A stretch of 20,000 bases of DNA from Paramecium tetraurelia. Its lineage: Eukaryota. Shown in pieces: positions 3 to 20,000 of the stretch. The translations under genes and the position numbers were made by a program. A model generated the notes under the pieces. It was not told the DNA's origin and did not search any database. It saw only the letters and a program-made list of their open reading frames with translations. Numbering within the stretch: the stretch's first letter is position 1; each line of letters opens with the position of its first letter. The stretch is taken from the NCBI GenBank assembly GCA_000165425.1, contig CT868070.1:118879-138878 (forward strand). Reading direction: 5' to 3'.

Positions 3-3000
3 TTTTATATTGAATTGTTGGATAAATTGAATAATCTACAATTAGCCTTTTAAATTATTACATCCGGAACTAAAATAACTAAGAATACTATATAAAATCA
101 ATTTAAATCAAATGAATTTTAAGAATACATATTTTTGTAATAATAGGTTAAGGAGTATAAAAGAGTCAAGAAAAGATTTATTAGCAAATTGTAAGAAGCT
201 GAAGATAAATTCTGTGATTTTGAATAGATCATGAATGAAGAGGTATAGGAATAGGATTCTTCTGAAGAGGAGGATGATGTAGAAGATGAACTAGAGGATT
301 ATGAAAAACTACAGAGCTATTTAGGTTTTAAAATATTTTAAATTAAAAATTACTAATAATTTTATAATCTCACTTCTGAAACAAGAATCAAATTAAATTA
401 GATTAAATTGAGTAAGGAATTTGTTGAAAAAACAATTCAAGAATTAAATTCATTGTTAATTACAGTTCCCTGGGTAGAAATCTTAAAACAAGAATTGTAA
501 GAAGGATATCTCATTGTGTAATAGTTAGAAAATGCTAAATCATCGGATGAAATATAGTTATTGTTAAATAAGCTTGAAGAATTACCTTTCCATTATAAAG
601 ATTTTCCAGAGTTTTATGAATTTATATCCAAATACTAATTATATTAGAGATATATGCAAGATTTGGAATTGCAAGAAAAGGATGAAGATGACAGTGAAAT
701 CTAAGTTACTAAAGATATTCAGACAAAGATCACATGCGATCATCTTTAAATGCTGAAATAATTATCTATTGAAATCAAGGCTCCTGAGAAAGACAAATAG
801 GTATTGGAGTAGGTGGAGAAGTAGTTAAATGAATTTAGATAGAGATTGAGAGGTATGATTGAACAGAAGAGTTTGAATGAACAAATGAGAAAGAAGTTTT
901 AATCTGAACTATAAATTAATAAGATTTATGATGTCCCTGAAATCTATGAATTATAGAAAAGACTAGAACAATTTTAAGAGGTTGAAAAAATTAGAATGGC
1001 TAAATCTTAAACTCTTCAACAACTCGAGCATGCTTTAGAAAAATCTAAAGAATTCAATTTTGATGAAAAGATTATTAATCAATTTGATTAGGATATAACT
1101 AAATGCTTATTGAAAAAGAAAGAAATTAAAGCTTTGTTGGAGAATGAAATATTTGAAACTGAATAATTAGATTAGGCTAAATAATTACTCTAAGATATTT
1201 CTTAAAGTAAGGTAATTTATGAGGAGAAATAATTATTATAGAGTTTGAATAAAGCTTGCTAATTTATTTAATAATTATATGAATTTTATTAAAAATATAA
1301 ATCTCCAGATTAGGAAATGGAAATTGAAGATGATAAAAATCCAGACTTATAATTTAAAATTAATTAAGTTTGCAATCCCTTTTAAATTCTATTTAAAGAT
1401 GATAATGAAACTATCATACTAGAATTAGAAAATATTTTAAGCAAATAATCAATCATACTTGACAAAAGAATAAATACTGTTTTAAATAATTATTAGCATT
1501 TTCTTTGGGAAAAACAAACCAAATTATTGTTATCCTTCTGCGAATCCAAATAAGAAATGCAAATATAATTAATAGAAGCAGTACTTTCGAAGTCATTCAC
1601 TTTGGATGAAAATGAATAAGCAAAATTAATTGATTTTTCAGAGATGTTCTATAATCAATAAAAAATTGTTATTTCTTTAAGTACCTAAATTGGAAACTAT
1701 TTATTTCAAGTGCCTCTTCCCCAAGAATTAGAAGGATGGTTCTACTTATATGGCTAAGTAACTCTTAATATAAAAGGAGGAATCTGGGACCAAATGAAAA
1801 TATATAATGTTTGGGTTACGATTGTAAAGAAGTATTTTGAAATTACAACAACACCAGAGTTTACATATGAAAGTCTAAAATTATTATAGGATGTTATTGT
1901 TATGTCACATATTCCTAAATAAGCATTGATTTGCGCAAATTTGGTCCAAAAAATAGCTTGTTTCAATGCCCTGGTTGATAAAATGAAAGATTATAACATA
2001 AGAAAATAGATATTCCTAGAAAAGAAGAAGTCAAAATAAGATTTATAAAAATTCAAATAATGCTTTACAATTGCAGAAGCCAGATTATTGGATTAAGAGA
2101 TCAAAACATGTAACATAGCGCATGACTTTATTTCGAAAGATTTCTATCAAGATTTTCAAAATCTTCATTAAATTTAAGAAGAATTTAGCAATTGTTCTTC
2201 TGAGGATATCTCTGCCCTTACAACTTTGTATTAGAGATTGATTTAATCATTTATTTAAGATTAATAATTAATGGAAGATTTGAAGATAAATATCTATTTA
2301 TTGAAACTAAAAGAAATATTAAAAGGGAATAAATTAGTTGAATTATACAAAGCCAAAAAGCAATACAATAGCCTAATGTAATTGTTGCAATCTCGTAATT
2401 TGTAAATCCCAAATTTCATAATTGAATTAAATACTTTATTAAATATTGCTGAAAGAATTTAAAATATAGCAAATAAGATCAAAAATAATCAACCCTATAC
2501 ATTTGAAGAATTATAATAATCTATACAAGATATAGATAAGATTCAAAATATCAATATTGAGAGATCGTAAGATGTTGAGATTAGATATCATGAATGCCTT
2601 TAAATCTAAAATGAAATTCAAGAGATTGTTCAATCTCAAATTAAAACAAAGGAAGTTGTAGTTCAAAATATATTAGAAAAATTATAGAACTTACCTCTAC
2701 CAGAAGAGAAGCAATTAGTGTAATCTTGGTTGAATTCTTTCGAATAACTGAAGTAAAGTTATTCCACATTAAGATAAACAATCTCAAAATAAAAAACAAA
2801 TCCTAATAGTAAAGAATTGACTGATTTGATGAATAACTTTTAAAAGAAATACAAAGACATAATGATAATATATTCTGATGCTGATCATTTTATTAGAGAA
2901 TACTAGGAATTTAATAAGAAATTAGAATATATTGAAAATAATTTATAAACTGAATAGTCATTCAATGATTTTCATGATTTACTCAGCATATTTAGATGGG

Positions 3001-5548
3001 GGGATTAATATGAAAGAGTCAAAATTGCTATTTGGATTAAATAAGTCAATCAATTCAAGGAAAACCCATAATAAAAATGGGGATTTGCTTCGTTTAGAAA
3101 TATGTTGAATCAAGGTTATGATATAATTGATTAAGCTTTAATGAATAATTAAAAGTTATCAATCGAAAAAATGAAGGTTCCATTAACTTATTTAGAATCA
3201 ATCATGACTAAATTGATTGATTCAGTTGCAAGTGGATCATATTTAGATCCAAGTGGCGAAGGAAAAGTTGATGCTTTTTAATTGTAAATTGAACTTTAAC
3301 ATATTACTCAACATGATAAATTAGAAAGGTTAAGAGAATTGCAACCAAAAAAACCATTTGAAGACATAAATTCATACTTTGATAAGAAATAAAAATAATA
3401 ATATATGCGAAAGAAGAATCAATAGAGAGAGGAGAAAGAGGAACAAAATAATTAAGTTGACAGCATTAAGAAAGTCAAAAAATAGTAAACTAATGAAACG
3501 GTTACTTAATAATTAAGAGATGCAAAGAAAAAAGAATTATTATAAGTTATTTGGAGAAATCCAACATTATCAAATTTGAAGAATTAGGAATTCTATTAAG
3601 GCAAAATAAAGATTTTTGAAAATTAAGAGTTTGGCACTTTCAATACAAACAAGTCAAGTATTTATTATTATTTTATAATTTAGTGTATTTGGAGAGAATG
3701 GCAATACTCATTTAAACCTTTAAAGAATTGCAATAATTACCTAATTTTTCAAAAAGAATTGTTGAAAAAGGATTCAATATAGAATAGGTTAATTATGCAG
3801 TAAGAAAATATGAAACCAAGGCTCTTTTATAGATAGAAGAAAAGTTGATGTAAAGACCGAATCCATCATCTTCATAATAATAAGATTACAACCCTCTAGC
3901 TCCAAATAAAAATAAAATAGTTGCTATTCAGCCAGTTAATTAGAAAAATGCTTAACCTGTTGTTAAATAAGTGTAATCTAATTAAACACAATCTAAATTA
4001 ACTAAGGAAGATGTTCTTAATTAAATTTTGAATGATTCATATCCTAACAATAAATTATAATAATAGCAACTATAGTAATAATAATAAATCTAATCTCAAT
4101 CCAAATCATTGTAGTTATAATAACAATAGCCTTAAACATTTTATAAATAATAATAATTATAGCCTTAAATTATATAATTGTAATAAAAATCATTATAATA
4201 ATAATAGTAGCCACCATAATAGTAACAATAATTATAATCATCTATTTTTGATAATACTTATTCTGATTAGATCAAATAAACCTTTCAATATCAATCACAA
4301 TAATCACTCTAATCATCATAATCATAACTTTAATAATAATCCTCGAAATCGTTGCTTTCTCCAAGCAGATCTATAAGTAAAGGAGTTAATGAATCCATTT
4401 CGTCTGATTTACCAGAATTGGAAGTTTTGAAAATGGAAAATCCAAATAAACCCATTTTGTATAATCCAGATGATGATGAACCAGACTAAAAAGTAATTGT
4501 ATAAAAAATTGAAGTATATCAATTGATTATTTTAGGTGACTCCACTTAACTTTGGAGATAAAATCTTAAAAATAGGAAAGAGATATAGATTTAATATAAA
4601 AGATTAATAAGTATCTTGTGAATTTTACACTAATTCTTTGGATAATAAATTGAAAGAATTTCCTAAGTTTTCCAGTGAATTTAAACATTAAAAATTTTAA
4701 CAATAAGATACAACATTACAATAGATGGAAAGATTAGCGAATAAAAACATGTAAATAATTTTAGCAGGATGGGTGGTTCCAGAAAAATACACTGAGTTTG
4801 GTGATATTCTAAAGTTTAGTGAAATGTTAAGAAAAGATTAATCTTTCATATCATTTCCTTTAAGTGATTCATTTTATACTGTTGTATATTTAATGCATTA
4901 CGATTAATTGTAAAACTCATAATTATTTGCAAATTTCAAATTGACAGAATTTGTATCTGAATCACATTACTTAAAAAGAGACTTAGGAATCATTAAATTT
5001 TGGGGGAATTTGATCCCTAAATTATGCTTTGTAATAACTATAAAATAATAAACTGCAGCAATGATGTTGAGTAGTTTTAATCCTTTGCAGTACGATACAG
5101 CAAAGAATGTATTTAAGGTATTGGTTTTTCAATAATTATTAGTCTAAAGAGTTTTGCAAATGGGTTGAAGGTAAAATAAGTGAAGAGAAAGCAAGTAAGA
5201 AATTATAACAATCACAATAATTATTGTAATAGCAATAATAATAATAATAACAATAGCAACAGTAATAATAATAGCAATAATAATAATAATAAAAGTAATA
5301 ATCGTAGTAATAATAATCATAATAGCAATAATAAATATAAACAGAATTAGAACCTGTGACTTCTGAAGAGGAAGACAATAATCAAATTAATAGTTAAAAT
5401 GGTTAAAGCCATTTATTTGGTAATCCAAATTCCGAGGTAAGGGATAAGTTTATAAAAGTAGGAAAATGGATATGAATAATTGCTTGCGTTGTTACAATCA
5501 GATAAACAAATTATGGGGGAGCTATTTAAAAATAACAATATAGGATGA
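3..5548 (+). CDS. Large protein (>=1815 aa, start upstream of window): helical/coiled N-terminal region, TFIIS central-like domain, Q-rich tracts and SPOC-like domain
   Basis: With TAA/TAG=Gln, frame 3 has no TGA from 3 to 3657. Introns 3658-3683, 4514-4535, 5118-5142 and 5437-5461 (all GTA...TAG, 22-26 nt) keep the frame open to TGA at 5546-5548, and the spliced length (5448 nt) is a multiple of 3. The segment at ~3500-3850 (QLRDAKKKELLQVIW...FENQEFGTFNTNKSMYLERMAILIQTFK...FSKRIVEKGFNIEQV) resembles TFIIS_M. The segment at ~4560-5045 (IILAGWVVPEKYTEFGDILKFSEMLRKDQSF...VVYLMHY...KLCFVITIK) resembles SPOC. The gene model is strong; the domain calls are by eye. Confidence 0.85.
3658..3683 (+). 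other. Spliceosomal intron, 26 nt
   Basis: GTATTT...TTTAG, very AT-rich. Removal joins the TFIIS-like segment in frame (KS-M-YLER). Confidence 0.85.
4040..4345 (+). repeat. Gln-rich low-complexity coding tract (TAA/TAG/CAA codons)
   Basis: Imperfect TAA/TAG/CAA repeats in the frame of gene 1. The Asn/His-rich ORF 4032-4376 in the track is an off-frame reading of this tract. Confidence 0.8.
4514..4535 (+). other. Spliceosomal intron, 22 nt
   Basis: GTATATC...TTTTAG. The unspliced frame stops at TGA ~4619-4621, while the spliced frame stays open through the SPOC-like domain. Confidence 0.85.
5118..5142 (+). other. Spliceosomal intron, 25 nt
   Basis: GTATTG...TATTAG. Removal places the downstream TAA/TAG/CAA run in frame as poly-Q. 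Confidence 0.8.
5206..5340 (+). repeat. Poly-glutamine tract encoded mainly by TAA, with TAG/CAA/CAG
   Basis: Interrupted (TAA)n run in frame near the C-terminus of gene 1. Confidence 0.85.
5437..5461 (+). other. Spliceosomal intron, 25 nt
   Basis: GTAAGG...AAGTAG. Splicing gives the ending ENGYEQLLALLQSDKQIMGELFKNNNIG*. Without it the frame stops about 12 codons in. Confidence 0.65.
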
Positions 5549-5601
5549 ATTTGAATATTTTATAGAAAAATGAGATTATAATTAATTCGTTTTTAATATC
5601 A

Positions 5602-8098
5602 ATGTGTGTCGGTGACATATTAGGAATGTGCCTTGGTCCAATAGCAACGTGCACCAAATATCTATGTGGTGCTCTAGGACTGGGATTGGTATTTACAGCA
5701 GGGGCAGTTGGAATAGATTTGACGGCAGATTGGCCAATTATATTAATAATTCTTGCATCAATATTAGCATTAATATGGTGTATAATGGCATACTTTGGGG
5801 GATTATAAGAAAGAGAGGATGAACCTTAACATTTAGCAAAATAATTTGAATTGATATGTGAAACTTAAGAAATAGTGAGACAATATGAAGTATTCAATTA
5901 AATAATAATAGGTAAGGCATAACTACGCTAGTGAATTGGCTGATGGGTGCATTCAGATATCAAATACAATAATAGGAATGTTCTTTACATAATTGATATA
6001 CGCACTAATCTTATTGATTTTGTTTCTGTTGGCAACTGTATCAATATGAAAATATTTATGTAGATCTGGTTCATTCCAGTTGGAACTAAAGCAGGATTCA
6101 TAGTAGGTTTATTTTTTGGATTTGTATCAATAACAATAATTGCTTGGACAGCATACACATTTGCAGGTCGATCTATATGTAAGGTGATAACAACTGCAAT
6201 TTAAAATAAATGGGAGCTATATGATTTCATGTATACTGTAGGATTTGGTGTGGTTCTGATGTGCATAGCATCCATCTATTTCATTTTCTTAATATTATTC
6301 TTTTTATTTAGAAGTTTGTAAGGATTAAGCAATGATAACAAACCACAAGATAAATTACAGTTGATGGGTGTTTGCTGCTGTGGCTATGCTTTGGGAATAA
6401 TAGTTTGCGCATTTATATATAGAGAATCAACCAGCATTTTGGGTAGAAGTATATTTAATGCCATTGATGGATTGGTGAAATGCGATAGAAACCTAAGTTT
6501 CAATAACCCCTATATTTCATCACCCACTAAATTATTATATGTGATTTCAAATATAATCAGTACATAAGTAGTAAATTTGTTGGACTCAGCTATATGCATA
6601 GCAGTATTAACAGTTGGAGGATTTTTAATATTCTCTAATTCTGAAGAAGTAGCGAAAGAAAATATTACTTGGAAATCATTGTTGGCTCCAACATTGTACT
6701 TTTGTGTAAATGTCTTTTGTGCAGTGATAGTATAGACATTGAAGAGTATGATTTGGGATAATGAAGTAGTGAGATTCACTAAATTGAACATCAGGCAATA
6801 AGTGTTGATTACTCATTTAATGACATTATTAATCTTCTTTTTCATGCCTATGGTTACAATCTTAAAGTAGTTTTCTTTAAAAGGAGTTGAAGCACCTGCA
6901 ACATTGGCTAAGGAAGACATTACAATTAGAAAGATCACTTATTGTTGTATTTTGGGTCAATTAAGCAATTTAGTATTATTAACAATAGGAGAATGGATGA
7001 CATCGCATGGTTGCCAACCAGTTAGAAATTTGGTACATATTTTAATTTATTAAGAGGCATTATCATCATCTGAAAGAATATTAACACAATCATACAATTA
7101 TGCAACATTTCTTAGTGCTTCTGGTCAAATAATTATTGTATTAACCTTAGGAATAATAGCAACAGCTGCACACGCATTAGCTGGATACGCAGGCATTTTA
7201 GCAGCTGCTGCTGGGTTCTTAATCAATGTATTGATAATAGTTCCTCTTTATTACATTGGATCTATCTCTTAAGATGGTGCTAAACTATGTGTTGCATCTC
7301 ATGTTACCTAAGTCGTATCTGAGAGATTTACCAAAATGGCTTGGGCAGCTAGAAATTATATGATCTACCTAAAAGTCACAAATGCTGGTTCAGCCATTTT
7401 ATTAGCATTAACCTTCCTTGGAGGAGCACTTTATCTATTTAAAGTCGACAATAATCCATTGATAGATTTTAATGGTATTTTTGGAATTCTCTTTGGAATT
7501 GGATTGGCATTCCTTGTCAAGGGTATGACTGTTGGTTCTGTGATATCAATATCTAGAATATTTGATCTTAATATTTATGAGAGTGGAATTGCTGCAGAAA
7601 TAGCAAAGAGAAATACTATCACATTAAATAGATATTTTGATAGTAAACATTTACTGGCAATCATTTGGGTCTTCATCATTACAATTACTGACACAATACT
7701 ATTATTTATTTTTGCATATTTCTTTGGCAAAAGAGGAACGCCAGGATTTCTTTTAGGACATACAATTATTATACTATTTTTGATGTGTTATTCAATTATT
7801 AACGGAACTGTTATGAAATAAAGCCGTTATTACAATGAAGGTATACTATCAATCACTAATTTCAAGTTGATGATAAATTATCAAAAAGAGGAAAAATTTA
7901 TTAATCCTGTGTTTAAGGAGATATGCTAGCTACTGTTGTTGAAGAAAGCACAGCAATTCCTCTTATTGTTTACTTATTATATAACACCATTCTTGTTACG
8001 TGTGCCTATCCATTCTTTGGAGGTGAAGGGTATATATATTTATTATATTATTTAGAGATTTGTTTGTGGAAAAAGCAACAGAAACTAAGTTTTTCTGA
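5602..8098 (+). CDS. Membrane-integral (V-type H+-translocating) pyrophosphatase-like protein, ~798 aa, with degenerate catalytic motifs
   Basis: ATG at 5602; introns 5890-5911, 6038-6063, 7841-7866 and 8030-8055; TGA at 8096-8098; spliced length 2397 nt. Many hydrophobic helices are collinear with H+-PPase hallmarks: GYALG (GYGLG), LVKCDRNL (LVGKVERNI), EWMTSHGCQPV (EYYTSNAYSPV), AGILAAAAGFL (YGVAVAALGML), IGSISQDG (YGPISDNA), NAGSAILLALTFLG (AIGSAALVSLALFG), GMTVGSV (AMTMKSV), QGDMLA (IGDTIG) and C-terminal PFFGGEG. Confidence 0.85.
5890..5911 (+). other. Spliceosomal intron, 22 nt
   Basis: GTATTC...TAATAG. The unspliced frame stops at TGA ~5932. Confidence 0.8.
6038..6063 (+). other. Spliceosomal intron, 26 nt
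   Basis: GTATCA...ATGTAG, containing an in-frame TGA. Removal restores the long frame-1 exon. Confidence 0.85.
7841..7866 (+). other. Spliceosomal intron, 26 nt, AAG acceptor
   Basis: GTATAC...TTCAAG. It is required to join RYYNE to the PPase-like C-terminus (KRGKIYQSCVQGDML). Confidence 0.7.
8030..8055 (+). other. Spliceosomal intron, 26 nt
   Basis: GTATAT...ATTTAG, purely AT interior. Splicing gives the ending GGEGDLFVEKATETKFF*. Confidence 0.8.
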
Positions 8099-8594
8099 AA
8101 AATAATAAATAGAAGAAAATCAAAATCATTATTATTAATTAATTCTTTTTATCAAGCCTAAGATTTCTATTAACATTTTTTGCTAAATCACTCATCTCTT
8201 CCTTATTTCTATCTATTAATTTTGTTAATTTTTGCATTTAAATTATTTAGTTTTTTTAATTATTCTACTATTCTGTCATAATTAGCCACTCCTTCATCTC
8301 TACTCAAATCTACTTTGGTCATTTAATTGAAACACTTTATTGTTAGAATCAATTCTTTACGTCTTTATATATATGAATGATTTATAAGAAAACATCATTC
8401 CTGACTTTATAGGCGATAAATCTTTAGACTCTATTAAAAGTTTTCGCTTCTCAAATAATTAAGGCAGATATTAAATTGGTATTGTTTTATTATTAAAAAT
8501 GAGAATACAATGTTAATGCCGCAATTTCAAATTTCTATTCATTAAATTTAAATATTATTATTGTTAAGAACTCTATTTATTTTATCGTTAATTT

Positions 8595-12145: not shown

Positions 12146-12703
12146 ATGAAAATAGTTAATGTGAATATATTTCTAATTTGGATGCTTGCCTATCTAACTT
12201 GTGTTAAAGGTTAATGTAATGAAATAACAGATCAAAGGTAGTGTAATGAAAATGAACAATGCGAATGGGATTATTGGTCACCTTCAAAATGTCAAAACAT
12301 TTGCAATCAATTGAAGAATCAAAATGAATGCAACTTTGCAGCAAACTGTAAGTGGGTAGCAAGTTCATCCTCATGTTTCATCAGAAAATGCACAGAAGAA
12401 TTGTAATAGGATAGATGTTGTCAAATAGTATTTACTACAATAAATTAGGTTGCTTGTTCTTGGAGAAATAACTAATGTTGGGACTCATCATGTGTTACAT
12501 TGTAGGCTAGCGAGGCTGGTAAATGTGCCAATTCATACTGCATTTGGGATCAGAAAAGAAAGCTTTGCTATGATAAAAAATGCTCAGACTATTCTAATTA
12601 ATATGATTGTGATCAAATATCATTTTGTAGTTGGTTTAAATACAAATGCATAGACGATGGTAATAACAAGATTGATTATCAAAATGGTGAAGAATAATGT
12701 TGA
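12146..12703 (+). CDS. Small secreted cysteine-rich protein (mini-antigen / surface-antigen-repeat-like), ~178-185 aa
   Basis: Signal-peptide-like start MKIVNVNIFLIWMLAYLTCVKG, then five units built around C-x-W (CEW, CKW, CSW, CIW, CSW). Probable 21 nt intron at 12428-12448; TGA at 12701-12703. Confidence 0.85.
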
Positions 12704-15565
12704 TCTAAAATCTAATTATTGTTATAAAAGAGGTTGAATATGTTTTTGATTTTACATATATTTCTCTATCCAACCAATCCAATTTTAATTTTCAATAATT
12801 ATTAATTTTTGTGTAATTATTTCTGCCTATTATTAATCATATTCTCAAAGTTAAGATTATTTCTTTTGGGTTTTTATCAAACGTCCTGATTAATCAAAGC
12901 ATATTTCAATGTATTCTAATGAGAATGAGAGTGTAATTAATAATAATGGTTATTCTTGAATAATTATTAATCAATTTATTTGTATATTCTGTATACTTCA
13001 TTTGTTGAATTTATTTCCTAAGGCAAATTCAATATTTCATTCAAAACAAATCGAGCATTTTGATTGGAAACAGAAATCTTTGTTCAATAAATTAAATTTA
13101 ATCATATTTTTTCTTCATTCTATTCTACAAAATAAAGTGTTTCTTTAAAGATAGAATTATATTTTATTAAATTCAACATAGTTTTTCAAAACAGATAATT
13201 CAAACTTTGAGAATTACAATTTATTAATTTAAACAGTAGTTCCAATGAACCAATAAAGCCATTATTCTAGTTTGTAACTAGGATACAAATATGAAAGTGT
13301 TAGAGGAATAATAGTAATGTTAGAAACATCAGTTAACATAAATATTGGAAAATTAAAATAAAATCGCAATATTAATACTCTTTGGTTTGTTTCCTCTGAA
13401 TAAAGAGCTTTTTAGAATTAATATACGATAATTGAGGATTGAAATATTAAATTATAATTCTATTCGAATGATGAAGGGTAATTGTGACAAGATAATTTAT
13501 TGGAATGTCAATTTAATTATTTTTGGACTTACTTACAATTATATTTTGGGTTCTTTTCCAGAATAATACAATATAGGTTAGATATGAGTCAATATAATCA
13601 TTTATTAGAAAATTAGACTCTTTAGCTATTTCATGAAATAGTGTAGAATTAAGGATCTTTTCAATATAAATTGCAATTCAAGTAAATGATCGGATGAAAT
13701 GAATGGATTAGACTTCATTTATAATTAAATTTATGTATTCCAGGCTTATTCTTATTGGAGCTAAAAAAAACTCAAATTACTTAATTGAAAATAGAATTAA
13801 AATGTTATCCTAGATTCTCCTAAAAATGGTCTTATGATAAGATTTAAACACTTTAATATACGAAGCATAAGATTTATAAAGTGTAGTGTGCTTATAATTA
13901 GAATAGTTTATCGCATTCTAAATGAAAATATTAATAATTGTTTTGTTTTAGATTTATAAATGTACCATAAGGAAACCAATAAGGATCTTTAAATGTAATC
14001 TGCATGGTAAAACTCCAAACTATAATTATCATGAATCACATAACTTTCACGACAATTATATCTGGTAAACACAAAAATGATGTATACTGATTAATTAAAG
14101 AAAAAATTAATTTCCTTTATTATTGTATAAAGCATTTTTAAATGATATAAATTAAAATATATGATCATTTATTTAAAGGAATGCATTGTATTTCTGATTC
14201 TTAGTTTCCATGCCACTGCAAACTGGAGGTTAATGGATTATAGTTTTACAGATACTGTTATTGTAGATAATAACTGGAAGATGTTTAAAGATTACTCAAT
14301 TGGTTGGCAAATTTCATTCAATACAAACATTTGCACTTAAAATCCATAAACATATGTCTCGTTAAAGAGAAATTAGTAATTCATAAAAAAGTCATTCAAT
14401 TATAAGGGTTTTGCAGTTTAAGTAGTTTTTGATGTCTTTTTTATTCAAGAGGATAATTCAAATTCTTATTTTGAGTTAAATACTCAACTTCATCTTCTAC
14501 CATAACAATTTTTAGTAGAGATTATAAGAAATTTGATTTGGAACAAAATAGTTAAATCATTTGTGATCCTACTTTTGACGAATTTGAATTTTTTACAATA
14601 GCAAGTACAATTTCTAATACCAACACTGAAAACTAATTTCTAATAAGTGTTAACTTCAATCCTGATTCAGTGTCCGTGGAAATAGGAATTAGAAACATGT
14701 TAATTTATGTAAATCCTTGTCATCCAACTTGCTTAAGTTGTTATGGTCCTTTAGAAACAAATTGTTTAACGTGTTTCGATGGTTAAGGGTTATCAGGCGG
14801 GAAATGCTAATGTGTTTCTGAATAATAATTTGCTGAAACTTTTATAGGTTGTCGTTAGGAATGTGATAGAGATTATTCGATTGCTCGGTATGATAAAATT
14901 TGTGTGTAAGACTACAGAATTAAATCATATTTAACATTATTTGAAAATGGTGTCATCCTTGTATCAAATAATAATAGGTATTCTCCTTTTATTTTTAAAA
15001 CAGACATATTTCATCCTAAGAACACTGATTTAATTTATAAAAGGTTGCCTTGCAATAGATTTTATTGGTAAATTGTAATTTAATGAAGGGATGTTTTACT
15101 AAATGAATTTAGAAAATTCAGTAAAATTTCTACGAATTCGCCTTACATTTTCTTTATCTAATTTTCAAGATTCAAGTAAAATTGAAATCTTAATTGATAA
15201 TCAACTTTAATCACGCATCATAAAAACTGCAACCAATTTTTAATATGTCAATTTGAATACAATATTTCAAGATAGTAGCATTTGTGGGAGTAGTGCTACT
15301 TTGTTAAGAATAGAGATGATTTTTAAAGTCTTTAATTCTCATCCAACAATTAAGATTTAAGGATAACTTTAACAAGCAAGTGAGTTTTGGGGATTTAAAA
15401 ATGTCACAATTGACACAGGACTTTGTTAACAGAATTGCAAGATTTGTTAAACCTTTTCTAAATGCGCATAATGTGAAACAGGCTATTAATTATATAGAAA
15501 CTAATGTATTGATAAATGTCCTATTCATTCAGATAATTGTGTTGATTATGAGGATAGGATTCCAT

Positions 15566-15591
15566 GTAAATTAATGTTATATAATTTTTAG
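15566..15591 (+). other. Spliceosomal intron, 26 nt
   Basis: GTAAAT...TTTTAG. Removal joins EDRIP-YSRYLAKG. Confidence 0.85.
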
Positions 15592-16456
15592 ATTCTAGAT
15601 ATTTAGCCAAAGGATTTTATAATTTAAACATGACTCTCGAAGAGATCGAATCTTTTTATGATACATTTCCTGATCCAACCCATAATATTGCAACCACATA
15701 AAAATTTTCATTTTTGAACAATAAAATAGTATTAGGAGGTTTGTTGGTATGGAATAATGGATAATATACAAAGGAATGGTCTATTTCACAACCTCATCAT
15801 GGAGTGTAAATTTATTTTAATTTAACTTATGGAGACAATTATTCTGGATTCTTTTATTATAAGGTAGGGACTACTAGCAGTACGTAAAAAGGACCGTTTA
15901 TTAATCTTGGTGGAGGATCAAATCTAATCGGTCAAGTTACTTCTGAAAGCACCCGTTACTTTAATATTAATTTGAACGATTTTTCTTATGACAGATTATA
16001 CATTCAACTTTTATGTCAAACCATTGCTCCAAATATTAATATGGGTTTTTGTGCCATATCAGATTATTTTATTGTTGTCAATTATGTAATATTTAATCAT
16101 ATTGTTTTATACTAGTGCCCTCCTTTTTGTTAAACTTGCACAAGTTCAAGTGGATGTACCTAATGGCAGGCAGGTTATAGTGGTTCTAATTGTTAAAGTA
16201 ATTAATATATCAATTTTGATCAATAAACAGAAACCTATAGTTGCAAAGATTGCGATGAAGTTTGTAGAACATGTTTAAGTTCAGAAGACTGTTAATAATG
16301 CATTAGCGATGAATTTCAGTTAATTAATGGAATTTGTTTGTGTAAACCCATTCAGATTTAGATATGGACGACATGTTTATGATGTAGTAGGTATTGTGAA
16401 AACTGTGTTGGTATTACATAATACGATTGTGTTTCATGTATTGAGGAATTTCACAG

Positions 16457-16583: not shown

Positions 16584-17965
16584 TGTAAACCAATTTGTGG
16601 GGATTTGGTAATAGTCAAAAATGAATAGTGTGATGATGGTAATGATAATGCCCTTGATGGATGTCATCATTGTTAAATATAATGTTATGATCATTGTTTA
16701 AAATGTAATCAAGGGATTTGTTTAAAATGTGATGAAATTAATGGCTGGTATTTAACAGGTGCTAATTGTGAATTTGTATGTGGAGATGGAATTGTTGCTT
16801 AGGGACAAGAACTTTGTGATGATTCAAATTTCAATCCTTTCGACTTATGCAATAATTGTAAATTGGGTTGTTCATAGTATTGTATGCAATGCTAAAATGG
16901 AGATTGTCTTAAATGTGAAATTGGCTTTGAATAAGATTCATATACTCGATAATGCATTCAAATATGTGGTGATAATTTAATTGTAGAAAACGAATAATGT
17001 GAAGATTAGATGATTCCATCATATATAACATACTGTGAAAATTGTTAATTTAAATGTCATCCCAATTGTATTGTATGCAAGTTTGGTAAATGTCAAGAAT
17101 GTTAAATTGGTTATATGTTAATCCATAACGAATGTGGAGAAATTTGTGGAGATGGATTAATTATTGGGAATGAGATTTGTGATTTATTCATATAAGATGT
17201 CAATTCTAATTGCTACAATTGTAATTATAATTGTCTAAGTGGCTGTTTGGTTTGTAATTAGGGTATATGTCAAATTTGTTAAGATGGATATTCCTTAGAT
17301 GAATTTTAGTGTAAACCTATCTGTGGAGATGAATTAATTGTTGAATTGGAATTGTGTGATGATGGCAATTAAATACCATATGATGGGTGTGATAGTTGCA
17401 ACTTTTCTTGTGAAGTTACTTGCTAATAATGTGAATTCGGTAAATGTACATATACCGATGATGATGATGATCCTACTATTGATTGTACCCCAGATTGTAA
17501 AATATGTGCACAACAGAATATTTGTTCTGGTTGTGAGGATAACTTTCAATTAATTAATAACCAATGTGTTCCTATATGTGGAGATGGAATCATTATTGAA
17601 GGATTAGAAGAATGTGACGATGGAAATAATTTACCAGATGATGGATGCTATCAATGTCAATTTTAATGCTCAAACGGTTGCGTCGATTGTCAATAAAGTC
17701 AATGTAAGAAATGTGATGATTCATAATATACCTTGGATATATAAACAGCTAAATGTTTAGAAAAAATCTAAAATTAAACTGATACTAATGTTGATCCATC
17801 AATCTTAGAATAATAGTAATAGACAGTTCTAAGATGCGGAGAAAATCAATTACTAATTGATAGTAAATGTGTTAATTAGTGCGGAAATGGAATACTGATT
17901 AATCAGTATGAAGAATGTGATGATGGAAATAGTTTTGGAGGAGATGGATGCTCTTCCTTGTGCAA
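16584..17965 (+). repeat. Seven protein-level Cys-rich repeats of the Myxococcus cysteine-rich / DUF4215 type (CxxxCG[DN]xxI...ExCDDGN...DGC)
   Basis: CKPICGDL, CEFVCGDG, CIQICGDN, CGEICGDG, CKPICGDE, CVPICGDG and CVNQCGNG in frame 3, spaced about 60-100 codons apart. Confidence 0.85.
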
Positions 17966-20000
17966 TATTGAAAATTCTTATAAATGTGTGAATTAAGAGG
18001 GATAATTAAGTTCATGCACATTTAATAGATCTCCAGAATTTGTTCTTAATATTTTATCCGATAAAACAAATTCGACATAGATGTTAGAATTAATTTTCAC
18101 TTAAGAGGTTAAATTATAAACGGAATTAAGGTTTGATGAACTAGCTTTTTTTACAATAGCCACTTAAACTCAATATTTATTAACCATCAGTTTCATTTAA
18201 AATATTTCTACTCAATTGAGCAATCCAAAATATTAAATCTCAATCTAATTTCTCGAACCCATAATAGATCCTATTCTATAAGTTGAAGTAGAGAGATCCA
18301 TAATACAGAACTAATTTGAATAAGATCTATAAGATTATTAAAAGTCAATCATTCTCGGAACTCCTTTTGTCTTGCCTGAAACTGCAAAAAAATAACTGAC
18401 TTCTATTGTTTAAATTAATGACGTTATGATGTATTCCATGGTAAGCGTGTCAAGTTTGGCATTGCTGACTGGTAATGCTATTATGTTCTTTAATTTGCTA
18501 GATTTATTACAGTCCTTATCTTATATCAAATTTATGCAATATCAGTTTCCACCACATTTAAAAGAATTTCTGAATACATACACAAAAGTTTCATTGCAAC
18601 CAATTATGAATTATTTTCAAGTAGATTAATTATTGGCAAAGTTAAATGGAGGTACTCTTCCTTATTAAGTCAGCAATAAATCTCAATAAAAATCCACAGC
18701 AAATGCTTTAAATTAGTTTTATTTGCTCAATGCAAAAAGTTGCTATTTCTCTGTCTTGGCATCAATATTAACTTATCTAATATATTGTATTATAGTGTCA
18801 GAGAGTGTTTAAGAATTCTTATTTAAGTTTTACAATGAAAGAGATCCAAATTCTAAAATTCTAAAACTTATTGATTTTTTTTAATAGAAGATTTAGAAAA
18901 AGTGCTTATAGTTGAAGTTCGAATATTTCTCTTTAGGTATATTTAAACTTTACTAAGCAATTTTACATTAACTTATTTTCAGCACATTATTACAATTTCC
19001 AAACTATTAATTTAATAGTGCATTTGAAATTTTCAACAGCATTAATGCAATTGTTGGATTACTTTTTGTTAGTTTTGTGACTTTCAATTTATTTACCATT
19101 ACTTCTGCTCAAATAAAAGATTAAAGGAAATGGAAATATTTTTATTTCGAATCAAAAACTTCTTTTTGGTAAGTTCATTGTAAGTCCTTTTAAATTTACA
19201 GAGTATTATTTTACATAATGATTATTGTTTAATTAATGAATTATCCTGAAGCATAATCAATTTTACTCTCTATGCTTTCATTTTTCTATTTGATTTACTT
19301 AATCAAATTTAAACCATTGTAATCTCAATTCGAACTTCTAAAATTAATTTTTAGAGAGTTGCTAGTGATGCTAATAACTGGAACATTTCTAATATATAGT
19401 TTTGATTTTAGTTAGGATAATTATATGCTTTTTGGTTGGATTCATATAGGTATGTTTTGCTCAATTTTGGCTTCTAATCTATTCATCGATATCTATGTGT
19501 AAATCTAGAAAATCTATGATAACTACCTGCAAAAGAAAATTAAAGATCAAAATGAATAAGAGAGAAAATATTATTACAATCAATTGCAAAGTTTTATATT
19601 AAATGATCGAGATTTTAACCCACAAAATAAGTGTAATCGATGACCATTATTTTATTTTGATTTTATTCAACTTTCTATACCTTTAATAGATAGATTGAGA
19701 ATTTAAATATTTTAGATGATATATGAGGGTGATTTGAGGTGAATTTTTTTTTGTAGTTATTAATTTATGATGGCATATTGCAGTTTGAGATTAGATCCGA
19801 CTTTGATTAGCCATCACCATTTTAGTCTTGTAGCATCTTTATATAATGAAGGGAGAATGGAATTTGAAAACTTATAACTTCATCTAAGATACTAGAATTT
19901 GATAATTAAGATCAGACGGAATGAAACATTAAATACACTGAGTTATTTCATTATAGAGATACTTAAGAGAAATATTATGTTACAAGATGGAGAGCGGGTA

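Follow-up and report, generated by a model that had tools for sequence, protein, structure and literature searches.

The 20,000-nucleotide stretch of Paramecium tetraurelia DNA analysed here (the window; positions 118,879 to 138,878 of the forward strand of contig CT868070.1, assembly GCA_000165425.1) carries at window positions 5602-8098, on the plus strand, the gene GSPATT00038053001, whose product is a remote but certain homologue of the membrane-bound pyrophosphatases (M-PPases). This protein is very probably a conserved ciliate pseudo-M-PPase, i.e., a paralogue that has kept the collinearity with the pumps and the predicted 16-helix fold, and not the hydrolysis of pyrophosphate (PPi) or the pumping of ions. 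Judged from its residues, it appears to lack all those defining properties of a working PPi-energised H+/Na+ pump (EC 7.1.3.1/7.2.3.1) that could be tested. The gene has been kept through ciliate evolution despite the loss of these residues, and therefore the protein probably has a different job.

All four full or near-full proteins tested, out of the nine named members of the cluster to which the protein belongs, matched the Pfam family PF03030 (H_PPase) with 42.9, 39, 37 and 34.3 bits, the gathering score being 29.7 bits. The match spans residues 322-742 and profile positions 230-618 of 645, and the largest exon by itself scored 26.3 bits, which is under the gathering score. No M-PPase was present among the Protein Data Bank (PDB) matches of a single-sequence phmmer search, and a family profile was required: profile A1 matched nine sequences of the Vigna radiata H+-PPase with expectation values (E) from 5.6e-32 to 2.2e-31 (residues 223-762) and the Thermotoga M-PPase with an E of 1.4e-8. 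When the pseudo-family alignment (A5) was compared with the canonical alignment (A6) by hhalign, the probability was 99.6% and the E 9.8e-25 across 558 columns. Values of this order, for the Vigna match and for hhalign alike, lie far outside what chance would give. In the ESM Atlas, which holds no structure for the protein, the nearest clusters were ordinary H_PPase clusters, whose score of 0.88 did not reach the 0.9 threshold. The AF2 model had a mean predicted local distance difference test value (pLDDT) of 77.2 and a predicted TM-score (pTM) of 0.83; its TM-scores against the Vigna structure 4A01 (4a01_A) were 0.79/0.84 across 766 columns, and Foldseek ranks 1-35 were all M-PPases. By both AF2 and Foldseek the predicted fold is the 16-helix fold of this superfamily.

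According to the parts of the review PMC6882861 drawn on here, the hydrolytic centre of M-PPases consists of 12 acidic, three Lys and one Asn residues that bind Mg-PPi, the Asp pair D6.43/D16.39 activates the nucleophilic water in functional enzymes, and the ion gate comprises S5.43, D6.50, E/S6.53, S6.54, E6.57, D/N16.46 and K16.50. The Asn is printed there as N12.53, and the table of the same review makes it Vigna N534. We took the residue lists and the helix numbering from this source and mapped them with a HMMER profile against Vigna and with MAFFT. The 16 hydrolytic positions correspond to the following residues of the Paramecium protein:

D5.61: F269, non-conservative
D5.65: D273, kept
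E5.76: F284, non-conservative
D5.77: N285, non-conservative
D6.35: Y297, non-conservative
D6.39: N301, non-conservative
D6.43: T305, non-conservative
D11.57: Q533, non-conservative
D15.61: K715, non-conservative
D16.31: D741, kept
D16.35: T745, non-conservative
D16.39: E749, conservative
K5.58: R266, conservative
K15.64: R718, conservative
K16.38: E748, non-conservative
Asn (Vigna N534): R560, non-conservative

Two of the 16 positions are identical, three are conservatively changed and 11 carry non-conservative replacements. Both MAFFT and HMMER aligned the nucleophile-activating pair D6.43/D16.39 with T305/E749. In the coupling funnel three of the eight positions are kept (R5.50 as R258, D6.50 as D312 and K12.50 as K567), and in the ion gate one of the seven (D312 for D6.50); the others are I251, I315, C316, V319, I756 and the position of K16.50. 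The latter falls on L760 by HMMER and into a deletion by MAFFT, and there is no Lys anywhere in that helix. The canonical rows of alignment A2 (26-32 per position) showed little or no variation at S5.43 and throughout the hydrolytic centre and the funnel, whereas the counts for 6.53-6.57 and for both gate columns of transmembrane helix (TM) 16 were not invariant; position 6.57 varies between pump subtypes, a semi-conserved Glu stands at 6.53 in most canonical rows, and the TM16 gate columns were mis-gapped by MAFFT in this alignment.

Compared with the K+-dependent Vigna H+-PPase (4A01), the Paramecium protein is collinear from TM5 to the C-terminus (residues 223-762, profile E ~1e-31) at 16% identity. 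The two share R5.50, D5.65, K261, probably D6.50, E423/T426/S427 in TM10, K12.50, V13.50 and D16.31. However, 14 of the 16 hydrolytic and six of the seven ion-gate residues are not identical, K16.50 and E6.57 are lacking, an additional Cys-rich hydrophobic stretch of ~40 residues precedes the aligned part, and the Paramecium protein bears new family residues (E259, Y297, W557 and K537).

An earlier reading of the same DNA (the first-pass annotation) had described a pyrophosphatase homologue with a dismantled active site, and most of this description stood. The degenerate segments that it quoted (STSILGRSIFNAIDGLVKCD, FNNPY, YVISNIIST, GSISQDGAK, AWAARNY, NGTVMKQSR, GDMLATVVEE and LIVYLLY) are all present, and three independent aligners (HMMER, MAFFT and hhalign) placed them opposite the canonical motifs as it had proposed, except around D312, where the aligners disagree. 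The loss of most Mg2+/PPi-binding Asp and Lys residues is borne out by the 14 lost identities in the hydrolytic centre, and that of the gate Lys and Glu by the absence of K16.50 and of any Glu at 6.53 or 6.57, with six of the seven gate identities gone. The residues that it listed as survivors, namely the Arg of YRE, the Asp of AIDG, the Asp of LLDS and the first Asp of GD, were all found. A match to Pfam H_PPase and to M-PPase structures, which it had named as a test, was obtained in both respects (above the gathering score; Foldseek ranks 1-35). An acidic residue conserved in another register was suggested only for D312, which hhalign alone placed at D6.43.

The altered residues are common to a family. 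When 1.84 billion cluster representatives were searched exhaustively with HMMER (cut-off E <= 1e-3), 76 hits were obtained, of which 37 carried the family motifs (YRE, W-A-x-x-N-Y/F/W, F-N-N-P-Y-I-S and E-x-x-TSH) without the canonical ones, six carried canonical motifs and 33 were short pieces with neither. E-x-x-TSH is not family-specific, since it also occurs in five of the six canonical hits. The 90% identity cluster of the protein contains nine named proteins, two each from P. tetraurelia, P. primaurelia, P. pentaurelia and P. sonneborni and one from P. octaurelia; eight of the nine are 790 amino acids (aa) long, and the pairwise identity of these eight is 93.0-99.7%. Outside this aurelia cluster the named members are P0044 of P. 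sonneborni (277 aa, 29% identity across residues 111-329) and P0041 of Ichthyophthirius multifiliis (XP_004029891, 569 aa, 22% identity). Many related unnamed environmental fragments bear the same derived motifs. Apart from the aurelia cluster and the Ichthyophthirius protein, two word-index searches with family alignments returned no named member, a result that says nothing on absence from Tetrahymena or other ciliates; otherwise they gave four unnamed fragments (P0087-P0090), the rest being ordinary bacterial or archaeal pumps. Among the fragments, P0011 and P0089 are 42-50% identical to the protein and P0087, P0088 and P0090 ~70%. Together with P0044, these older and more divergent Paramecium-like copies suggest that the family has been retained across at least two genome duplications. 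In a quick maximum-likelihood tree, nine pseudo rows were separated from 24 canonical rows by one branch with a Shimodaira-Hasegawa-like approximate likelihood-ratio test (SH-aLRT) support of 100 and a length of 4.8.

The Ichthyophthirius protein P0041 has YRE, E-L-F-TSHG, R-W-A-S-E-N-F and a Lys at D15.61 like the rest of the pseudo-family, lacks DNVGDNVGD and GPISDNAGG, and falls on the side of the pseudo rows in the tree, its branch being very long (3.47). It keeps slightly more of the old site (GG-x-I-G-K, and N-A-K in TM15), and its gene model, at 569 aa, may be incomplete. The closest canonical hits (P0063, P0082, P0073, P0080 and P0086) have the TEY-x-TSH form of the TM10 motif, as in the pseudo-family; this common form hints at descent from a eukaryotic-type pump. 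Canonical ciliate H+-PPases are covered in the parts of PMC8055999 drawn on here, where PdVP1 and PdVP2 of Philasterides dicentrarchi, with homologues in Paramecium, Tetrahymena and Ichthyophthirius, are reported to act as functional pumps of vacuoles and alveolar sacs. These proteins, from the same phylum and superfamily, keep the canonical motifs, including HKAAVIGDTIGDPLK, whereas the Paramecium pseudo-pump has none of them.

Conservation was counted on 52 non-redundant pseudo rows, with a row number that varies by position; alignment A4 (73 mostly short fragments) was left out, being of visibly poorer quality than the others. R258 and E259 each occur in 17 of 18 pseudo rows, and the canonical rows have V or L at the position of E259 (5.51). 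D312 is found in all 11 rows, R266 and K277 each in 15/16, N286 in 14/16, Y297 in 13/14, D534 in 13/19, K537 in 12/20, W557 in 20/25, and R or K at position 560 in 18/26. The hydrophobic gate recurs as well: S5.43 is replaced by I, V or L in 16 of 19 rows, 6.53 by I in 8 of 10 and 6.57 by V in 9 of 11, and S6.54 is changed to C in 8 of 10. By our tally, the funnel-aligned residues of P0003, the P. tetraurelia protein, comprise ~8 basic and 6 acidic side chains, as against the strongly acidic canonical site that needs five Mg2+. The cytosolic pocket thus looks rebuilt and not eroded, and we infer a family-conserved set of new residues consisting of E259, R266, K277, D279, N286, Y297, D534, K537, W557, R/K560, N561 and K/R567. 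This goes beyond the first-pass annotation, as the former active site appears to be not merely dismantled and to bear conserved residues of its own.

The gene is intact, transcribed from the plus strand and spliced. The stretch is AT-rich (GC content 0.19-0.32) and translation followed the ciliate code (table 6), whose sole stop codon is TGA. The gene has six exons and five introns (22, 26, 24, 26 and 26 nucleotides, nt), all GTA..AG, and its spliced translation of 790 aa is identical to P0003, i.e., GSPATT00038053001. Two stranded oligo-dT RNA-seq runs (X21 and X22, same species label) and two further runs with transcript-like contigs (X5 and X10) were used to follow its expression; among the indexed sequencing runs that contain the stretch none is recorded as RNA, and the expression evidence is drawn from raw RNA-seq runs. 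The features, all on the plus strand, are:

5602..5889, exon 1 (residues 1-96); the spliced coding sequence (CDS) equals P0003; contains the N-terminal extension and the helix aligned to canonical TM1
5890..5911, intron 1 (22 nt, GTA..TAG); its basis is only the exact match to P0003, with no read junction listed
5912..6037, exon 2; spliced CDS equals P0003
6038..6063, intron 2 (26 nt); 26 bases are absent at 6038 in one contig each from runs X5 and X10
6064..7032, exon 3, including the degenerate TM5-TM6 motif region (spliced CDS and alignments)
6421-6606, degenerate TM5-TM6 region (residues 258-319) with YRE, ILGRSIFNAIDGLVKCD, FNNPY, YVISNIIST and LLDS
7033..7056, intron 3 (24 nt, in frame, without TGA); in X5/X10 contigs a loose end at 7033 continues as exon 4, and P0003 lacks these 8 residues
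7057..7840, exon 4, including the degenerate TM11-TM12 region and the TM15 motif (spliced CDS and alignments)
7249-7374, degenerate TM11-TM12 region (residues 526-567) with YYIGSISQDGAK, MAWAARNY and K567
within exon 4, TM15 motif NGTVMKQSRYY, with the K715 codon at 7816-7818 (alignments)
7841..7866, intron 4 (26 nt); an X21 RNA-read loose end at 7864 (3 reads) has ...TATTACAATG joined to AAGTTGATG
7867..8029, exon 5, with the TM16 region GDMLATVVEESTAIPLIVYLLY and the L760 codon at 7977-7979; no Lys at the expected place of K16.50 (alignments)
8030..8055, intron 5 (26 nt); an X21 RNA-read loose end at 8029 (7 reads) continues as AGATTTGTTT, the start of exon 6
8056..8098, exon 6 with the stop TGA (8096-8098); spliced CDS, with RNA depth zero after ~8108

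RNA depth was ~2-28 across positions 5300-8107, on a single strand only, with none after 8108 (X21 and X22), and reads or contigs support the splicing of four of the five introns (introns 2-5). The claims of the first-pass annotation on the gene itself held in nearly all respects. The start ATG at 5602 and the stop at 8098 were as it had placed them; its intact, properly spliced reading frame collinear with H+-PPases is backed by the match to P0003, the splice evidence and the family profile against Vigna; and the expression that it had proposed to check by RNA-seq was seen as stranded, spliced RNA covering the gene. Its length of ~798 aa has to be corrected to 790 aa; the longer figure corresponds to a product with the in-frame 24-nt intron 3 left in. 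It had also pointed to a Cys-rich hydrophobic N-terminal extension, and this is present: approximately residues 1-42 (window 5602-5727) are hydrophobic, with Cys at residues 2, 10, 17 and 22, and ~40 residues precede the segment aligned with canonical TM1, canonical N-termini aligning from about residue 43 by MAFFT. In the AF2 model the pLDDT is below 50 for residues 1-37.

Retention of intron 3 (7033-7056), a multiple of three without TGA, would escape nonsense-mediated decay and would put 8 extra residues into the TM10-TM11 loop. Near the start of the gene, RNA reads break off at 5382 (X21 and X22; 6-7 reads, continuing GTTAGCAGTAATCATA...) and at 5645 (X22, 4 reads), with continuations that are absent from window positions 5300-8400, and variants at 5358, 5364 and 5543 are near 100% in the RNA reads. 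These breaks and the nearby variants could be due to a strain difference, to reads of the whole-genome-duplication copy (ohnologue) or to a junction of the upstream gene. An antisense open reading frame (ORF) at 5382-6791 on the minus strand (469 aa), which overlaps the gene, matches no Pfam family, and no RNA maps to its strand; we consider it an artefact that arises because the ciliate code has only one stop codon.

The expression of the gene and the pattern of its variation point to purifying selection, and the pseudo-M-PPase does not appear to be decaying. All 12 CDS positions at which RNA reads differ from the window are synonymous third-position changes. If, roughly, one in three or four random changes to a coding sequence leaves the protein unaltered, the probability of such an outcome is below 1e-5. 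Four of the five aurelia species yielded both ohnologues and P. octaurelia a single copy; the P. tetraurelia ohnologue P0006, N-terminally cut on a 9.2-kb scaffold, is identical at 628 of 652 positions. The idea of the first-pass annotation that a non-hydrolytic protein is nevertheless maintained thus fits the evidence from homology, residue loss, RNA, synonymous variants, retained duplicates and relatives.

The gene upstream, at window positions 3-3848 (+) and probably extending to ~5475, is 53% identical (656/1228) to P0022, i.e., GSPATT00027389001, a P. tetraurelia PHD-finger protein of 2150 aa. Residues 2077-2139 of P0022, the last ~63 of its model, are 73% identical to pseudo-PPase residues 37-99. 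P0022 thus combines a match to the upstream gene with a pseudo-PPase-like tail, and therefore an older paralogous block keeps the order of a PHD gene followed by a pseudo-PPase. The model GSPATT00027389001 itself probably fuses two genes.

Could the protein be a still active H+-pumping pyrophosphatase with an unusually divergent active site? The Pfam score above the gathering score and the full M-PPase fold would allow this, and R258, R266, D273, K277, D312, K567, R718, D741 and E749 are retained or conservatively changed, with hhalign even placing D312 at D6.43. However, the 11 non-conservative changes among 16 hydrolytic positions include D5.61 to F, E5.76 to F, D6.35 to Y, D15.61 to K and K16.38 to E, at positions that are invariant or nearly so in 26-32 canonical rows; moreover, K16.50 is absent in every alignment and no Glu stands at 6.53 or 6.57. 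We therefore regard an active pump as very improbable. Even harder to credit is a decaying whole-genome-duplication copy, a young pseudogene with a still-open frame, although the loss of catalytic motifs, the weak single-sequence Pfam score and the many duplicates of Paramecium would be in line with it. Five species retain an unbroken 790-aa frame in which the five introns are correctly placed, and four of them have both ohnologues; the transcripts are spliced and the 12 coding variants all synonymous; and the derived motifs are common to relatives at 20-70% identity, including Ichthyophthirius. In addition, in the older P. tetraurelia paralogue pair the pseudo-PPase is 73% identical (63 comparable residues), as against 53% for its upstream neighbour. 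A passive channel or secondary transporter that has been repurposed on the old ion path and works without PPi energy deserves more consideration and is still unlikely. The inner-ring helices and the buried R258/E259/D312 cluster are conserved in the family (17/18, 17/18 and 11/11 rows), and there is a new invariant Glu at 5.51, the position of the gate Glu being what sets ion specificity in canonical M-PPases (PMC6882861, in the parts drawn on here). However, the other gate positions are hydrophobic family-wide and K16.50 is missing, which resembles a plug and not a pore.

Several observations weigh against reading the protein as a pseudo-M-PPase of defined function. The evidence fits a partner, a sensor and a scaffold alike, and the almost certain loss of hydrolysis and pumping is one that we infer from residues alone. 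The assignment of D312 depends on the aligner, as it falls on D6.50 with MAFFT, about one turn lower with HMMER and on D6.43 with hhalign. With the hhalign placement, which opens an 11-residue gap and removes D6.50, one of the two Asp residues that activate the nucleophile would be retained. Spacing from the anchor prolines (P287 = P271 and P347 = P327) requires +2/+2 residues for D6.50 and +9/-5 for D6.43; we took D312 as D6.50, which this spacing favours. The input alignment of the confident AF2 model included canonical pumps, and the protein was therefore refolded using pseudo-family rows only. The resulting model was of low confidence (pLDDT 49.8); its Foldseek ranks 1-35 were still all M-PPases (E 3.5e-8 to 2.9e-5), with the next match at an E of 0.42. 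The split between the clades joins long branches (1.6-4.8 changes per column), and since long branches meet in the tree, a single origin of the pseudo-family is not proven. Finally, the conservation counts are not independent because most rows are Paramecium-like fragments.

If the protein is a pseudo-M-PPase, it would no longer be able to bind Mg-PPi, activate the attacking water or hold H+/Na+ at the gate. The cytosolic funnel would have been rebuilt into a pocket that could bind an anion or a protein directly, and the transmembrane path would be plugged by hydrophobic side chains around the kept buried-charge cluster of R258/E259/D312. The first-pass annotation had suggested a regulatory partner of active PPases, a repurposed channel or transporter, or a scaffold; among these three roles a channel by the canonical path is the least likely because the gate is replaced by hydrophobic residues. 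Our own ranking favours a non-pumping subunit, followed by ligand sensing and then by a channel using the canonical path. The subunit might pair via TM10/13/15 with itself or with active H+-PPases and tune or anchor them, a role that we propose tentatively; a ligand-sensing, receptor-like protein using the rebuilt pocket is less probable, and a passive transporter is unlikely. The rest of the probability falls to a purely structural role or to something unforeseen.

Functional M-PPases are homodimers formed via TM10, TM13 and TM15. A complex prediction with two copies of residues 420-781 gave a score of 0.09 against a mark of 0.32, with the supplied alignment not used in that prediction, and the score speaks neither for a dimer nor against one. 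Conserved TM10 residues and V13.50 are kept, which is no demonstration of dimerisation. Functional asymmetry between M-PPase subunits is described in the portion of the literature drawn on here, and this makes a dead partner conceivable. The more specific proposal of a dedicated dead subunit which heterodimerises with active H+-PPases of ciliates, or of a PPi/phosphate-sensing receptor, is doubtful. Such a subunit or sensor would exploit the known half-of-sites asymmetry of the M-PPase dimer to set the activity of the pump, possibly in acidocalcisomes, the contractile vacuole or alveolar sacs. The presence of copies at several divergence depths within Paramecium would fit a dosage-sensitive role, e.g., as part of a complex. 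Sensors derived from transporters are known in yeast, where the glucose sensors Snf3/Rgt2 and the amino-acid sensor Ssy1 have kept the fold under purifying selection and lost the original activity; their likeness to the Paramecium protein lies only in the kept fold and the lost activity, as there is no homology between them.

Elsewhere in the window, the ORF at 16884-19643 (+; 919 aa) contains five Cys-rich DUF4215 repeats (Pfam E 1.1e-42) and a C-terminal half that is hydrophobic by eye, and its product looks like a ciliate surface or membrane protein. The ORFs at 14161-15633, 15564-16382 and 12146-12703 are Cys-rich by eye and have no Pfam hit.

In UniProt the Paramecium protein bears the automatic name 'H(+)-exporting diphosphatase', and P0041 is called 'proton-pumping vacuolar pyrophosphatase, putative'. 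Systematic mis-annotation as pumps thus appears to affect nine or more proteins of Paramecium and one of Ichthyophthirius, which inflates pump counts in comparisons of ciliate transporter and osmoregulation genes. In the open-access literature and bioRxiv (subscription journals and supplements being outside this scope) we found no description of a catalytically dead M-PPase and no mention of GSPATT00038053001, GSPATT00039077001, XP_001437010, A0CFP6 or XP_004029891, and the word 'pyrophosphatase' is absent from the main text of the Ichthyophthirius genome paper. The conserved pseudo-pump clade is therefore probably previously undescribed.

Pseudoenzymes as a class are common. To our knowledge, all M-PPases have so far been regarded as catalytically active primary pumps; in protist parasites they serve as drug targets, and in plants they are used to improve stress tolerance. 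With a conserved and expressed clade that has the fold but neither the hydrolytic centre nor the ion gate, nature would have provided a test of the part that the scaffold plays in the absence of catalysis, and such a clade may address questions of dimer communication, membrane organisation and ligand sensing. If true, a dead regulatory subunit would have no reported natural precedent among these pumps within the literature covered.

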